Source of the DNA: a phage
Sequence record: OZ346158.1
Reading direction: 5' to 3' (one strand)
DNA length: 64,000 nucleotides
Shown: positions 1,439-46,878 of the stretch, piece after piece
Layout of the letters: every line of letters starts with the position of its first letter
Position numbering within the stretch: position 1 is the stretch's first letter
Program-made: the position numbers and the translations under genes
Notes under the pieces: model-generated
Told to the model about the DNA's origin: nothing
What the model saw: the letters and a program-made list of their open reading frames with translations, nothing else
Database searches by the model: none

Positions 1439-3510
1439 TGGCAACAGCTGTTTTTAAACCTTACCGTGATTACTCTACAATGGCTGCACAGTTTCATTAC
1501 CGCACAGTTCAGGATACTGCCGTTCCTGGTAGAGATTATGATCATGTTGAGGGCGATGTAACTATCCCAGTTGGGGCAACCAGTATTGAGATCCCAGTGG
1601 AAATTGTTGACAAATTACCCAACAGGTTGCCAAGAAGCTTCTTTATGGAGTTTTCATCAAAATCTCAAGGAGTGATGATTGGAACACAAAGGGCGAAATG
1701 TACAATAGTTTCAGATGAGAATCTTGACAGGATATCTTGGGATACTGTTGAGGAGAGAATGTTTCACCCAAGATATTGGGTTACAACCACTCAGCAGACT
1801 GAAAGTACCTGTATTGTTGCAGATAACAACTGTTGTATTAACCGTTTAGTGTCAAGAACATATGGAGGTATGGCTGGGTGCATTTGGGAAACAGTTGACA
1901 AGTATGACCATTTCGGTATTGGGTTTGATGATCACTATGAGATGAGAAACACCAAGCTTTGGTTCAGAATGTCAATAACCAACGCCAGCAACTTCTCCAC
2001 TCCTGAAAAGATGATTATGACTGTAGACCTTGTTGATGGCACAATCATCTATGTTCCTTTAGCTCAATATGCTGTCAGCATCTCAGAGGATAAAAATGTT
2101 GCAGAAATTCATATTGATTTTGAGGACTGCGTCGGGATGGACCAGAACAACAACATGATGGGTGTTGATCCTCGGCAGGTGAGAAGGATTTTAATACCAC
2201 TTATGCCTAAAGACTGGGTAAGTAATAGCACAGATCCAAGAACGGAAAATGTAGAGTGTGAGTTGCGCCTAGATCTGCTTCAGCCAGACACAGGCTGGAA
2301 AATGATGCAACTTAATAATATCCAGGTGAGAGAGCACGACGTTGGGATCTGCACCGCATATGACGATATGTGGAACGTGTCCCCTTTAAGGGTGTTGAAC
2401 AATATCAAGCGTCTGGGCTATACCGGAACCATAAACCATTATGTTGGTATGAGTCATTATTATGACTACACATGGTCAGGAACCCAATGGTCTATAAACA
2501 GAACAGGAGCGCTAAACGCTGCAGCTTATAAATGGCATGATGATTTTATGTACAATGCCAAACGACATAACTTCGACGTTATGCAATCTGTAAGTTTTGA
2601 GCTTTTCAGCGATGCCTGCCCGTTGGAATGGACCCAAAGAGACTGGAACGATAACTACGCTAAAACAGGGTATACACCTTGTAGCTACCTCCTGTCTCCA
2701 ACCATTGAAGAGGGTATGAATTTCCTTACTGCAGTATTTAAGAATTTTGCATCAGCCGCTATGAGAAACAACCTGCCAGTGATTATGCAGGTTGGTGAAC
2801 CGTGGTGGTGGTACAATACCGATACTCGTAGACCTTGTATTTATGATTACCCTACAAAGCAGGCGTTTTATGATGAGACAGGTGAGTATGCATTAGATAT
2901 TGGGACTATTGACGATCCTAAAACTGGCGGTGTTTACGACAAGTATGTAGCATTTTGTCGTGGTAAGCTTGGCGCTCGTATTGCTGCTATTTCAAAGGCA
3001 ATAAAGGCACACGCTGCATCAGCTCAGATGACAGCTCTGCTGTTTTTCCCAACCATTATGGAAACCGAGCTTACGCAAAAGCTTAACCTTGCTGACCAAT
3101 ATAAAAAGGAAGCAGGTGCTCTTGATTTCTTCTGCACCGAGTGCTACGATTGGGTGATGCAGGGAGGTATTGAAAAGGCAAAAGAGTCTGTAAACATACC
3201 TATCGTTAAGTTAGGTTGGCAACCGTCTGAAATACAATACCTTGCAGGGTTCGTTCCTAGTAAAGAGCTTGCTCCGGTATATGGTTACGACCCAACTAGG
3301 AATTACCAAGAATTTTTATGGAGATGTATTTGCGGAAACATGGCAACTATAGAGTATAGATACCCTGAGGTAAAACAGTATGTGTGGGCATACCCGCAAG
3401 TAATGTCTGACAGCATCACTGTTACCGCTAGAGATTCTACCGTGCTTCATATGGGGCAGGTTGCTCTGAAAGGGTATGTAGAAGATGTTGTCCCGCCAGA
3501 CTTCTCATAA
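1438..3510 (+). CDS. hypothetical large virion protein (690 aa)
   Basis: Long uninterrupted ORF, GGAGGG RBS, translationally coupled to upstream gene; function not recognisable. Confidence 0.65.
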   Translation: MATAVFKPYRDYSTMAAQFHYRTVQDTAVPGRDYDHVEGDVTIPVGATSIEIPVEIVDKLPNRLPRSFFMEFSSKSQGVMIGTQRAKCTIVSDENLDRISWDTVEERMFHPRYWVTTTQQTESTCIVADNNCCINRLVSRTYGGMAGCIWETVDKYDHFGIGFDDHYEMRNTKLWFRMSITNASNFSTPEKMIMTVDLVDGTIIYVPLAQYAVSISEDKNVAEIHIDFEDCVGMDQNNNMMGVDPRQVRRILIPLMPKDWVSNSTDPRTENVECELRLDLLQPDTGWKMMQLNNIQVREHDVGICTAYDDMWNVSPLRVLNNIKRLGYTGTINHYVGMSHYYDYTWSGTQWSINRTGALNAAAYKWHDDFMYNAKRHNFDVMQSVSFELFSDACPLEWTQRDWNDNYAKTGYTPCSYLLSPTIEEGMNFLTAVFKNFASAAMRNNLPVIMQVGEPWWWYNTDTRRPCIYDYPTKQAFYDETGEYALDIGTIDDPKTGGVYDKYVAFCRGKLGARIAAISKAIKAHAASAQMTALLFFPTIMETELTQKLNLADQYKKEAGALDFFCTECYDWVMQGGIEKAKESVNIPIVKLGWQPSEIQYLAGFVPSKELAPVYGYDPTRNYQEFLWRCICGNMATIEYRYPEVKQYVWAYPQVMSDSITVTARDSTVLHMGQVALKGYVEDVVPPDFS

Positions 3511-41905: not shown

Positions 41906-42294
41906 TGAAAAATATTTGGGATATCGATATCTTTGAAGCCTCTAAGCTTGATGGTGCTGATGGAGTGATTATGGTGTCTGATGGCAAGGCAACACTAACT
42001 TCTGGGGATATCATCTATGCCTTGGACGAGCTGGCGCTTCTGAAATCTACCGGTAACACTTTAGAGGAGCGTCTTCAAGGCTTCGCCTTCAAAGAAGGCA
42101 CAAATACCGCCATGATGTGCACCACACGGACAGTTCAAGTTGGTAACGGTGTCTATATGATCATTGCTGTGTGTCCTAAATTCAGCAACGTCAACAAAGA
42201 TGATGCTGACGCTGTCAACGATGTGGTTGTTCTCTTCGTGGGTGACGCTATGGCAGATCTGATGAATGCAGGAGAAGCAGCAAATGAAGACTGA
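41902..42294 (+). CDS. hypothetical protein
   Basis: 130 aa, coupled start. Confidence 0.5.
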   Translation: MMKNIWDIDIFEASKLDGADGVIMVSDGKATLTSGDIIYALDELALLKSTGNTLEERLQGFAFKEGTNTAMMCTTRTVQVGNGVYMIIAVCPKFSNVNKDDADAVNDVVVLFVGDAMADLMNAGEAANED

Positions 42295-42586
42295 AAACAT
42301 CACCCCCGCAGGGTTCTTAAAAGTATACCGTGAACTGCTATATACTACAGAGGACAGTGTTCTAGAGTATCCAGAATATCTTTTGCTGTATAAGTATCTG
42401 CAGGAGGCTGGTGAAAATCTGCCAGTTAGTGCAGAAGGTGGTCCGAACTGGATATACAGCGCATGGAGAAAGGTTGACATTCTCCCCGACCCAGGTAAAG
42501 ATATGGTAGTTTGGCAGCTTATTAACAACATCGGGATTCCAATCTTTGATGAAGCTGTTAAAATCTATTTTGAACTTGACGATTAA
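42284..42586 (+). CDS. hypothetical protein
   Basis: ATG 6 nt after AGGAGAAG. Confidence 0.45.
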   Translation: MKTENITPAGFLKVYRELLYTTEDSVLEYPEYLLLYKYLQEAGENLPVSAEGGPNWIYSAWRKVDILPDPGKDMVVWQLINNIGIPIFDEAVKIYFELDD

Positions 42587-42932: not shown

Positions 42933-43298
42933 ATGGAACAAATGAACGATCAAGCGTCGGTTGCGATGAACGAGCAAGAACAACCTCAAGAATTTTTCTT
43001 AGGGTTAAGTAAAGATCAAGTGTCTCTTTTGCTAGTGCTTTCTTCTTTCATGGGAAGACTTCAGGAGCTCACACAACAACCGGAGGCTGAACAATTATTT
43101 CAGGCTCTGCGTGAAGAAGAAAAATATCGTCGTTTGGACTATGCCTTAGGTTGGGTAGCTCAACAACGAGATATGCTGATGGCCCTCTCTGGGACCACAA
43201 GTTTTGCAATGGGCCTGTTGGCTCAAGTTCAGGACAAATTAATTCAAGCAGGGTTTGCACACACGGCAAACACTAACGAAGAACAAGGAGACAAATAA
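42933..43298 (+). CDS. hypothetical protein
   Basis: 121 aa, GGAGA RBS. Confidence 0.5.
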   Translation: MEQMNDQASVAMNEQEQPQEFFLGLSKDQVSLLLVLSSFMGRLQELTQQPEAEQLFQALREEEKYRRLDYALGWVAQQRDMLMALSGTTSFAMGLLAQVQDKLIQAGFAHTANTNEEQGDK

Positions 43299-44569
43299 TG
43301 AGCGTTATTCAACAATTCGCTAACCCGATGAATCCGCGTGAAACTGTTTTACTGGCTCACGGCATGATTAAACGCGTCAGCATCAAGCCTATCAAAGGTG
43401 CTGATCCTACAACAGGTATTAAAACCACTGTGTGGCAAGGTAAGAAAATTGAGTCCAGCCACACCATCTCTTTACTGATTTCTGAACTGGATTCCTCTGA
43501 TAACCTGCTTCAAGGTGGTGAAGAAGTCTGGATCAGCATGGGTGATAAACTGCTTAAACCGGGTCATCAAGACTCTGTCTCTGTTAAGATTGATGACAAG
43601 TGGGAAACCGTAACGCCAGGATGGATCGTAAATATCCCTTTGAAGGCAAACGAGCATAACGGTAAGACCTACTACAAGGGCTCACTGGCTAAGATGGTTA
43701 AGCTGGGTGCAGGGGAGGCTCCAGCAGCGACTCAGCAGCAAAAACAGCAACAAGGTGCACAATCACAAGGCCAGAAGCAGAAACCTCAGCAGAATGCCAA
43801 TCAGGACGTTTTACGCATCTATGGCGATGTGACTCAGATTGTTGGCAACGTGGTTACTGTTAATGACCACAAGATTGGCGAAGGTGCTATGGTTGTCACT
43901 GATGAGCAGCTTAAAGACCTGGTGGTAGGTGGTCGTGTTGCAGCCATTGTTGACAAAGACACCGGAAACATTATCAGTGGTTTCAAAGCCTACCCACCTA
44001 AGGCAGAGAACGGCACTCAAGGCTCTGGTGGCAAGCGTAAATCCTCTTACGACCCTATTGGTGTGGAGACGGGACATAGCATCAATGCGTTGCAAATCAT
44101 CCTGGATCGCGGGTTTAAGGTAGACGACCCACTAGGTGTGGCTAAAACACTGCACGTAGTCACCATTGAGCTTAAGAAAGAGTATGCTCAAGCCACCAAC
44201 CGAACTGAAGATGAAGTAGGTGCCAGTGTCGGTAATGCGGTGTTGAACGCTTGTCGCCGTATTGACAAGAAAACGAAAGTTGATGATTTTGCAGCGGCAA
44301 TTACTGCAGAAGCAAAAGATGTCTTGACTAATCTGGCTGAGCCGTTGTACGATTGGATCAAGAACGGTGCTGGGTCCACTGACCATCAAGAACCTCAAGC
44401 TGCCAAACAGGAAGCTGCTTCACAGCAAAATACTGTAGACGCTCCTCCTGTAAATGACGAGGAAGATGACCCAATGGATCAGAATCCAGCACAGTATGAC
44501 TTCTGTGATGACATACCTTTCGCTCCGGTGGGTTTGCAATATGGCAAAAGTAGAATCCACGCATTGTAA
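43298..44569 (+). CDS. putative ssDNA-binding protein with SSB-like acidic tail
   Basis: 423 aa; Gln-rich linker; ...YDFCDDIPF near C-terminus matches the E. coli SSB tail DFDDDIPF, but is followed by 16 extra residues; in replication block. Confidence 0.5.
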
Positions 44570-45164
44570 GAGGTGCATCAAGTGTGGAGAGGTGAAAAAC
44601 CTCTCCGAGTTCTACAAACATCCAAAGATGTCTGACGGTCATCTTAATAAGTGCAAAGAGTGTTGCAAGAAGGCCAGCAGGGAGGCTGACCAATTTTCCC
44701 ACGACTCTTCAGAAAAAGGTGTGATCCGCGTGTTGTACAAGACTCAAAAGTGCAACAGTAAGAAGAGAGGTCACCCACCTCCGACTTACACCAAAAAAGA
44801 GTTTAAGGAGTGGCTATACCTAAACGGTTACAAAGAGTTGTATGATCAATGGGTAGCCAGCGGATACGACAAAAGGAAAAAGCCTTCTTGTGACAGGATA
44901 GATGATTTCAAAGGGTACTCTTTTGATAATATCCGTTTAACGACTTGGGGAGAAAATAAAGACAAGCAGACAGAGGATATTCTGTTACATAGAAGCACCA
45001 GCGGTAGACGGTGCAAAAATGTAAGGAGGTTGGACATGAATGGTAACGTTCTTAAAGAATGGGTATCCCACAATTCTTGCCGAAGAGAAACAGGGATATG
45101 TGTTGATTACTACATTCATGAAAAAATTCCAGCTCCCGATGGATACCTCTATGAATACTTCTAA
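44541..45164 (+). CDS. zinc-finger protein, possible free-standing homing endonuclease-like
   Basis: Start at ATG 44541 overlapping end of SSB-like gene; N-terminal CKRC...[13 protein letters not shown]...CKEC zinc-finger pattern seen in phage endonuclease-type proteins. Confidence 0.45.
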
Positions 45165-45179
45165 CATCTAGTTAACATA

Positions 45180-45209
45180 GCCCTGCCCGAAAGGGTGGGG
45201 CATTTTTGT
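45180..45209 (+). terminator. rho-independent terminator (copy of 33552 hairpin)
   Basis: GCCCTGCCC-GAAA-GGGTGGGGC followed by ATTTTTG. Confidence 0.7.
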
Positions 45210-46004: not shown

Positions 46005-46430
46005 ATGATCTATGAAATGCCAAAACTGATTCGTGATGATGCCCAAAACGCTCACACCATTATTATGGGCAAACGTATGGATATTATTTGTCATAAAGAT
46101 TTCTGGGAAGGAAGTTACTTCACAGAGTATTTTGGTAAACTGGACAATGGTCTGCTGATCCAGTTCTACACCGATGCGGAAAACAACATTCACTGGGAGT
46201 TCGAAACTGAAGATATCCATAAACTTTTCACCTTCCTCGGTATTAAGGTCGAGGCCAAGTTTGAAGAAGGTGAGTGCGACGATTGTGGATTCTATGAGGT
46301 AACAGATTTCTACCTTCCAAGTGGTAAAAATCTCTACTACGAAAGCCACTTCGGCAACTCAAATATGCCACAGGGTTGGGATGAGTTTTTGGAAATTGCA
46401 GAAGAGGAGCTGGAATACCGTGATTATTGA
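46005..46430 (+). CDS. hypothetical protein
   Basis: 141 aa, GGAGAA RBS-like. Confidence 0.5.
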   Translation: MIYEMPKLIRDDAQNAHTIIMGKRMDIICHKDFWEGSYFTEYFGKLDNGLLIQFYTDAENNIHWEFETEDIHKLFTFLGIKVEAKFEEGECDDCGFYEVTDFYLPSGKNLYYESHFGNSNMPQGWDEFLEIAEEELEYRDY

Positions 46431-46878
46431 TACTGTAAAGGGAGATCTAATCTCCATTTTCAAGAAAGGGTCAGGCCACATGATCCACGGTTGTAACTGC
46501 TTTCACACAATGGGTGCAGGTATAGCGAAAGATATTGCCCGTGAGTTCCCTCAAGCACTGGCAGCCGACAAAGAGACTGCTTATGGTAATCTAGACAAGC
46601 TGGGTATGTTTTCTTGTTGGGAGCATTTTGCCAAGGCCAGGGTCGTATATGGAATCAACCTGTATACCCAGTTCTACCCAGGGCCCAATGCTGAATACTT
46701 CTCAATCATGAAAGGTTTTGAGCGAGTCAACGAGGTATTCAAAGGTATGTCATTGCCGTTCTACATTCCTAAAATCGGATGCGGTATTGGAGGTCTAAAG
46801 TGGAAACATGTAGAAGATGTAATTAATCTTGCAACCACAGATATTGATGTGGTTGTAGTAGAGTACAAAAAGTGTTGA
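46420..46878 (+). CDS. macro-domain protein (Poa1p-like ADP-ribose-processing)
   Basis: GTG start after GAGGAG; motifs VKGDLISIF, IHGCNCFHTMGAGIAKDIAREFP and PKIGCGIGGLKW match the Macro_2/Poa1p pattern. Confidence 0.7.
   Translation: MIIDTVKGDLISIFKKGSGHMIHGCNCFHTMGAGIAKDIAREFPQALAADKETAYGNLDKLGMFSCWEHFAKARVVYGINLYTQFYPGPNAEYFSIMKGFERVNEVFKGMSLPFYIPKIGCGIGGLKWKHVEDVINLATTDIDVVVVEYKKC

Follow-up and report, generated by a model that had tools for sequence, protein, structure and literature searches.

The locus described here occupies positions 42,933 to 45,164 of a 64,000-nucleotide (nt) stretch of phage DNA (sequence record OZ346158.1; hereafter the window) and is likely to consist of a gene for a protein resembling SSB (the protein that binds single-stranded DNA), a conserved peptide module that follows the SSB-type C-terminal tip of that protein, and a PacI-like homing endonuclease gene (HEG) that targets tip-coding DNA, lies after the Phe codon of the tip and moves together with the module. 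Since the region is 99.3% identical to that of phage MaxBurger (Bas54), the window was assigned to Vequintavirus, i.e., the rV5-like myoviruses of Escherichia coli. The principal elements were as follows.

43298..44569, + strand: SSB-like gene, 423 residues, PHROG 4477 (open reading frame, PHROG match)
44375..44521, + strand: acidic, disordered tail ending in the SSB-type tip YDFCDDIPF (AlphaFold model, alignment)
44522..44566, + strand: post-tip extension of 15 residues (stop codon 44567..44569), a conserved peptide module on phage and plasmid SSBs
44522..45161, + strand: 640-nt insert (extension plus HEG) relative to HEG-less alleles (allele comparison)
44541..45164, + strand: free-standing HEG, 207 residues (open reading frame, PHROG 1035, MaxBurger annotation with identical limits)
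45180..45207, + strand: intrinsic-terminator-like hairpin and T run (hairpin 45180..45201), the same in alleles with and without the insert

Related records that matched the region numbered 117, all from phages, and were assigned to allele classes by class-specific junction queries. The window arrangement of extension plus HEG was present in 32 of these. Another 18 (inoa type) carried a HEG with a different 5' end behind an SSB-like gene that stops right after ...DDSIPF, with no extension, and approximately 65 had neither HEG nor extension and ended ...FDDDIPF-TAA. Phages rV5 and MaxBurger are carriers of the HEG, while phages ime and JeffSchatz are HEG-less. The inserts, which measured 640 nt in the window type and 587 nt in the inoa type, were bounded by identical flanks; thus, TAA CATCTAGTTAACATAG continued the flank in all three classes and was followed by the same terminator-like hairpin. 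The window insert begins directly after the Phe codon (44519..44521), its boundaries being ambiguous by a shared TTC, and the corresponding junction in HEG-less alleles reads ...GATGATGACATCCCATTCTAACATCTAG.... A precise indel of this kind, together with empty alleles that end at Phe408, is the signature of a free-standing HEG, and extension and HEG travel as one 640-nt indel in the rV5 genus. A group I intron or an intein was rejected on the grounds that the insert begins after the last codon of the tip, is open reading frame for 624 of its 640 nt, has a base other than G at its end and does not keep the frame of the SSB-like gene.

Within the rV5 genus, the extension was noted only in company with a HEG or a HEG remnant. 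The remnant was seen in locus L013 (83% identity; 3255..3382), where the extension is kept and is followed by TAATAGGCTCATCAAGTGTG, a degenerate remnant of the HEG 5' end, and by a 3' remnant; in this case the HEG has decayed and left the extension intact. Window-type and inoa-type HEGs were approximately 98% identical past codon 37 or so, whereas upstream of this point the two types differed completely, i.e., in the 30 nt with which the SSB-like gene ends, in the extension and in the 5' half of the HEG that codes for a zinc ribbon. On the simplest reading, the segment from the end of the tip through the extension to the 5' part of the HEG would have been exchanged by recombination, with conserved tip-coding DNA as the left homology arm. 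The presence of at least four 5' or linker variants of the same nuclease core at the identical Vequintavirinae site (the window, inoa, L011 and L023 types, the last of 242 residues; loci L023:2702..3430 and L003:1934..2512) indicates repeated invasion or swapping of 5' modules.

The same alleles could be read in the opposite direction, with the extension and HEG, or the extension alone, ancestral in Vequintavirinae and the DDDIPF-stop alleles derived by precise microhomology-mediated deletion. The extension does occur in most of the distant members of the family, the insert has TTC TAA at either end (CTTCT for the inoa type), a HEG can decay, as seen in L013, and a HEG-less allele, L127, has the window-type FCDDIPF tip with no insert. 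However, most relatives of 57–82% identity have no extension and carry unrelated downstream sequence, and the insert boundary is the clade-wide insertion point right after the Phe codon, so that this direction is considered less likely than not.

The residues after DDIPF, counted as 16 in the original prediction, had there been taken as a possible result of the insertion of a mobile endonuclease gene at the 3' end of the SSB gene. They number 15, or 16 codons if the stop is included, and the internal position of the tip in the 423-residue open reading frame was borne out both by the frame and by alignment. Insertion itself was also supported, in that the HEG lies behind the Phe codon and HEG-less relatives end DDDIPF-TAA, but the extension is no by-product of it. 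The accompanying expectation that homologues end at the tip held for close HEG-less relatives and failed for many distant homologues, several of which have no HEG downstream of the extension, and for some SSBs of family PF00436. Many of the distant members (26–42% identity) of the 72-member family of the SSB-like protein end ...DFDDDIPF-AP[VI]GLQY[GA][KR]xxI[YH]A[LI]. The HEG is absent from the extended loci of Seunavirus KE22, Mydovirus KB57 and Serratia phage Kashira, where a convergent tail gene lies 35–48 nt away, and from that of the phi92-like phage Paula, where a terminator comes next. The same peptide ends canonical PF00436 SSBs of the lambdoid phages mEp013, mEp554 and mEp235, of phage ACG-M12, of Vibrio phages phiV039C and BT-1011, of an Enterobacter plasmid and of IncT plasmid Rts1, and in phiV039C, BT-1011, mEp235, ACG-M12, Rts1 and the Enterobacter plasmid it likewise occurs without a HEG. 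In contrast, the TIGR00621 SSB model stops at the tip Phe.

Across these proteins, the extension conformed to the consensus F-A-P-[IVM]-G-L-Q-Y-[GP]-x-x-x-[IL]-x-x-[hydrophobic], was 14–17 residues long and was always C-terminal. In a tblastn search, a 26-residue tip-plus-extension query was covered to at least 80% by 215 records from phages and 124 from plasmids. A strict degenerate DNA pattern was found in 36 IMG/VR contigs and in only 10 of 185,579 species genomes, nearly all of them Gammaproteobacteria. The carriers of the extension returned by a profile search of 1.84 billion representatives were canonical SSBs, small proteins, a helicase-type C-terminus and at least five longer architectures to which Pfam had no match. 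A word-index search with the tail profile returned short fragments only, mostly named 'SSB, partial'. One small protein, P0316 (120 residues), has an unrelated N-terminus fused to an SSB tail and extension and is either the product of a chimeric gene or a mis-called open reading frame. Helicases too bear SSB-type tips, with or without the extension. A metagenome contig (L072:1..1476) codes for a ResIII/DEAD-type helicase that ends ...DISDEDIPF plus 22 hydrophobic residues (SLSIAIPLASLSLYLEWYNLII) and is followed by a HEG of the same clade as that in the window, while a relative of this helicase, P0375, ends ...DIDEIPF-APIGLQYPMILYSC.

Selection on the extension was evident from a comparison of 16 extensions from diverse elements, in which pS was 0.83 as opposed to a pN of 0.31, 4–8 different codons were used at each conserved position, and amino-acid identity was 0.56 in the SSB frame and approximately 0.25 in the other two. 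The variation of synonymous codons, the low pN and the confinement of conservation to the SSB frame indicate that the extension is selected as a peptide. Conservation of the extension as a DNA junction, i.e., as a ribosome-binding site or as the start of the next gene, was rejected because it is conserved at the amino-acid level and in the SSB frame only. In the window, mEp013, L059 and L061, downstream genes do use an ATG within its Tyr-Gly codons; this ATG is lost where the Tyr codon is TAC, and many carriers of the extension have no co-oriented downstream gene.

These results bear on the strictest form of the original prediction, in which the extension is meaningless read-through made when the HEG displaced the SSB stop codon. 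The occurrence of the extension in the rV5 genus only beside a HEG or its remnant would agree with this. In addition, at several loci of the HEG clade the cassette starts right after the Phe codon and adds an unconserved tail (S, NEVQ, NRG or 22 hydrophobic residues), so that the mechanism first proposed does operate within the clade. However, the 15-residue peptide of the window recurs on hundreds of HEG-free genes in unrelated elements, its synonymous divergence is saturated while non-synonymous divergence is low, and the short distance to the convergent tail gene in KE22, KB57 and Kashira leaves no room for a HEG scar. Read-through is thus a very improbable source of the peptide. To judge from its distribution and codon usage, the extension is not a creation of HEG insertion; it is a portable peptide module which mobile elements of Gammaproteobacteria attach to SSB-type tips on unrelated proteins.

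The final 29 nt of the SSB-like gene are shared with the HEG, the ATG of which sits within the Tyr-Gly codons of the extension. The Cys9 codon of the HEG (TGT), which does not code for one of the invariant Cys residues, overlaps the SSB-like stop codon (TTG TAA G / TGT AAG), and an overlap of the SSB or SSB-like stop with the first HEG Cys codon, in the same register, was noted in the window, L011 and mEp554. The protein carries the pattern CxxCxxC...CxxCC (C9/C12/C15 ... C38/C41/C42). The overlapping reading frame with paired CxxC motifs reported in the original prediction was thus upheld, and four of the Cys residues proved invariant in 32 homologues. Searches of Pfam and NCBIfam gave nothing for this protein, the core of which resembles the His-Me finger of PacI. 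The following parts were recognized.

44565..44666, + strand: Cys4 zinc ribbon at the HEG N-terminus (C12, C15, C38 and C41 invariant)
44871..44987, + strand: PacI-like beta-beta-alpha-metal (His-Me finger) core without the catalytic His (sequence and structure matches)
45003..45125, + strand: C-terminal DNA-binding module like that of I-HmuI and NUMOD (alignment, domain in a homologue, structure matches)

The four ribbon Cys residues were invariant across the 32 HEG homologues, as were D118, R119, Y126 and N139. The protein matched PHROG 1035 with E = 3e-41, and its only sequence neighbour in the PDB was PacI (E = 0.026), the two having C..DRxDxFxGYSxxNxRL in common. The predicted structure (pLDDT 89.8) had PacI and I-HmuI as top structural neighbours, and the NUMOD-like domain of I-HmuI (PF22083) was detected in a HEG homologue, P0099. 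Members of the PacI group of His-Me fingers have no catalytic His and use a Tyr of the omega loop (PMC5714182); Y126 of the HEG aligns with this Tyr. A PacI-like nuclease core with its catalytic residues intact was thus found. The name 'endonuclease VII', which is attached to this gene in many GenBank records and to PHROG 1035, was rejected, as there was no match to Pfam Endonuclease_7 and the neighbours were PacI and I-HmuI instead. A search of the window for another copy of the endonuclease gave none.

Among known nucleases, PacI provided the closest match to the core by both structure and sequence; each has DR...GYS...N and no catalytic His, for which a Tyr substitutes in PacI. However, PacI is a restriction enzyme of 142 residues whereas the HEG adds the Cys4 ribbon and the I-HmuI-like tail and behaves as a mobile gene. 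In modular layout the HEG was closest to I-HmuI, which differs in having the canonical His of HNH enzymes and in being intron-encoded; the HEG of the window is free-standing, with no intron present. Since the terminator is identical with or without the insert, it is the SSB-like gene's own, and the HEG stands between it and the stop codon of this gene. A search for a HEG promoter found none better than chance, and the HEG would be transcribed as a promoter-less passenger of the SSB-like transcript, upstream of the terminator.

The relationship between this HEG and tip-coding DNA was most evident from other members of its clade. In IMG/VR, all 15 of 15 loci with a HEG at least 45% identical to that of the window were preceded, in the same orientation and at most 73 nt upstream of the start of the HEG, by a gene whose end codes for an acidic [IV]PF tip, as opposed to 0 of 34 loci with more distant HEG homologues and a background of 0.007 acidic IPF ends per equivalent window. 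The same order of tip gene and HEG, at a distance of up to approximately 75 nt, was noted in five further loci (L011, L023, L071, L072 and L073). The genes upstream of clade HEGs coded for canonical SSBs, members of the Vequintavirinae family, three other small proteins and a ResIII helicase, which have only the tip in common. These associations suggest that the PacI-like HEG clade homes to tip-coding DNA. Because clade members always lie immediately 3' of acidic-IPF gene ends, the HEG most likely recognizes and cuts the tip-coding DNA of HEG-less alleles and would then be copied in by recombinational repair; the predicted cut site is at or near ...GAYGAYATHCCNTTY-stop of HEG-less DNA.

Extended SSB genes also end at HEGs of a second type, in which a zinc ribbon 45% identical over 78 residues to the N-terminus of the window HEG is joined to a canonical HNH domain. 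HEGs of this type were noted behind extended canonical SSB genes in mEp554, L050, L059 and L061. In a comparison of mEp013 with mEp554, the HNH HEG was inserted exactly at the end of the extension, with flank identities of 94% downstream and 74% upstream.

Association of the PacI-like clade with IPF tips might instead reflect a permissive, well-expressed intergenic niche or shared descent, with no recognition of tip DNA. In favor of this, the case for cleavage of tip-coding DNA is one of genomic association, and the seg and mob genes of phage T4 are also promoter-less passengers behind expressed genes (PMC2988022). A niche or common descent is nevertheless quite improbable given that the upstream genes share the tip only, that the insert has its left end precisely at the Phe codon and that tip genes preceded 15 of 15 clade HEGs against the low background noted above. 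Of known HEGs that are linked to an SSB gene, the nearest is SegG of T4, a free-standing GIY-YIG HEG that lies between genes 32 and 59 and targets gene 32 (PMC2988022). Like the HEG of the window, SegG is a free-standing, promoter-less passenger beside a phage SSB gene and is polymorphic among relatives (PMC2988022). Unlike SegG, the HEG of the window has a PacI-like His-Me finger and is downstream of and overlapping the SSB-like gene, and its clade follows a short motif-coding sequence across unrelated genes whereas SegG follows one orthologous gene.

Evidence that the tip belongs to an SSB-like protein came largely from the predicted structure, which was built on 43 homologues. Besides the tail, the following parts were distinguished.

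43298..43717, + strand: OB-type beta-barrel, residues 1-140 (AlphaFold model, structural matches)
43718..43804, + strand: Gln-rich linker, predicted to be disordered, residues 141-169 (AlphaFold model)
43805..44005, + strand: second small beta-barrel, residues 170-236 (AlphaFold model, family alignment)
44045..44371, + strand: four-helix bundle, residues 250-358 (AlphaFold model, family alignment)

The Gln-rich linker of the original prediction was found as a Gln-rich stretch at residues 145-170 or thereabouts. The second barrel was missing from shorter homologues of the phi92/phAPEC8 type, and the four-helix bundle was the most widely conserved part of the family. Residues 360-423 were disordered in the model, including the linker at 360-408. 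The best structural matches of the protein were to OB folds that bind single-stranded DNA, in keeping with the SSB-like nature first proposed, although no SSB sequence profile matched. Thus, neither Pfam nor NCBIfam gave a match to the SSB-like protein at permissive thresholds, PF00436 and TIGR00621 included, whereas the SSBs of mEp013, phiV039C and Rts1, used as positive controls for the SSB profiles, all matched. A PDB search with the sequence returned noise only, and a fold search of BFVD returned only uncharacterized relatives.

The tip YDFCDDIPF, encoded by 44495..44521, is no chance match, because Pro407 and Phe408 were invariant across the 43 aligned members of the family and this same Phe is the last residue both in PHROG 4477 and in the HEG-less alleles. 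The acidic tip was kept in all 72 homologues. A terminal Phe with a free alpha-carboxylate, as in SSB, was found in the approximately 83 related records without the extension but not in the window, where 15 residues follow Phe408. According to the model, the product of 43298..44569 would be the Vequintavirus SSB-like protein, with an OB-type barrel, a small barrel, a helix bundle and a tip-bearing tail. The tail, having an E. coli-like tip (DFxDDIPF), presumably engages partners of the host SSB interactome. An alternative is that the 423-residue protein is not a replicative SSB and serves as a hub or decoy, its mimic of the SSB tip capturing or competing for host SSB-interacting proteins. This would be consistent with the failure of SSB sequence models to match it, with its unusual architecture of two barrels and a helical bundle and with the uncharacterized relatives in BFVD. 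A decoy is nonetheless thought unlikely, since OB folds that bind single-stranded DNA were the top structural matches, no canonical SSB was found elsewhere in the window, and the gene position at which the tip module occurs is of the kind that canonical SSBs have in other phages.

The C-terminal tip of E. coli SSB (SSB-Ct, DFDDDIPF) has the same acidic-IPF motif as the SSB-like protein, and in both the motif closes a disordered linker that follows an OB fold. The phage protein of the window differs in that the Phe is followed by 15 conserved residues and in that the N-terminal part has no match to SSB sequence models. At the DNA level, E. coli K-12 ssb (L129:3126..3662) and a HEG-less phage allele (L001:1878..1953), compared over the last 22 coding nt before the stop, had only two differences in the 22 positions of TTTGATGATGACATYCCNTTCT, which makes host ssb a near-cognate for a nuclease or for recombination using tip-coding DNA. 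In complexes of SSB-Ct with its partners, pockets bury the Phe side chain and a basic lip anchors its alpha-carboxyl group (PMC10164576); an internal Phe should therefore dock poorly. The extension provides both an internal Phe and a new hydrophobic C-terminus preceded by basic residues, and it would alter the choice of partners by the tail, either by masking docking that depends on the alpha-carboxylate or by adding a second docking site.

Several findings weigh against parts of this interpretation. Target-site immunity became less likely as the reason for the FCDDIPF and FDDSIPF tips because the same tips occur in HEG-less genomes. Of 24 differences from one HEG-less allele, 7 cluster beside the insert, in the final 30 nt, as a co-conversion or immunity tract might predict, but variation of the tip codons is not strictly tied to HEG presence and the case for immunity is weakened accordingly. 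Docking of the extension to Erf recombinase was rejected, as an Erf-like gene was near 12 of 46 extended and 3 of 13 non-extended loci, i.e., without enrichment; adjacency to Erf is therefore not specific, and no co-occurring partner of the extension was found. The extension was disordered in the AlphaFold model. Finally, the genus tolerates both states (32 records with the extension as opposed to approximately 83 without), so that here the extension may have little effect on fitness.

Neighbouring genes were identified as follows.

42266..42586, + strand: DUF7238 protein (PF23885, E = 3.4e-7), in the same upstream position relative to the SSB-like gene in metagenomic relatives
42933..43298, + strand: gene of 121 residues matching PHROG 7310, with no assigned function
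46321..46878, + strand: Macro domain protein (PF01661, E = 1e-5, 25.9 bits, cut-off 22), the real start of which is probably 3' of the listed GTG

The stop codon of the 121-residue gene and the start codon of the SSB-like gene overlap in TAATG, and in relatives the former gene always precedes the latter. Sixteen GenBank records (MG0656xx) named 'Campylobacter phage' (host Campylobacter jejuni) were 96–97% identical in this region to rV5-like phages of E. coli, and their host attribution looks doubtful.

Phage genes for SSB-like proteins and free-standing HEGs with His-Me fingers are of kinds already known. Two features appear to be new on the sequence evidence, namely that a conserved extension of wide occurrence places the SSB tip in an internal position and that one HEG clade keeps to tip-coding sequence in genes otherwise unrelated. 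In a limited search of open-access full text, no description of a post-tip motif or SSB tail extension was found. Two annotations are correctable, i.e., that of the HEG as 'endonuclease VII' and that of the SSB-like gene as 'hypothetical protein'. A broader proposition, to which we would give a little less than an even chance, is that both of the following hold: elements of Gammaproteobacteria append a post-tip motif of 14–17 residues that would rewire or mask the host SSB interactome, and the PacI-like HEG clade would specialize in tip-coding DNA, jumping between unrelated genes with host ssb as a near-cognate. Among the contacts between SSB and its partners, that made by the free alpha-carboxylate on the terminal Phe is considered a key one, yet this Phe is buried in hundreds of phage and plasmid SSBs, which implies either a different mode of binding or that mobile elements switch off or redirect the recruitment of host factors. 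If its preference is real, the HEG clade would explain the mosaic 3' ends of phage SSB genes and, as a clade that follows a motif-coding sequence and not a gene, would clearly exemplify how selfish nucleases come upon conserved, portable targets whose interruption does no harm.

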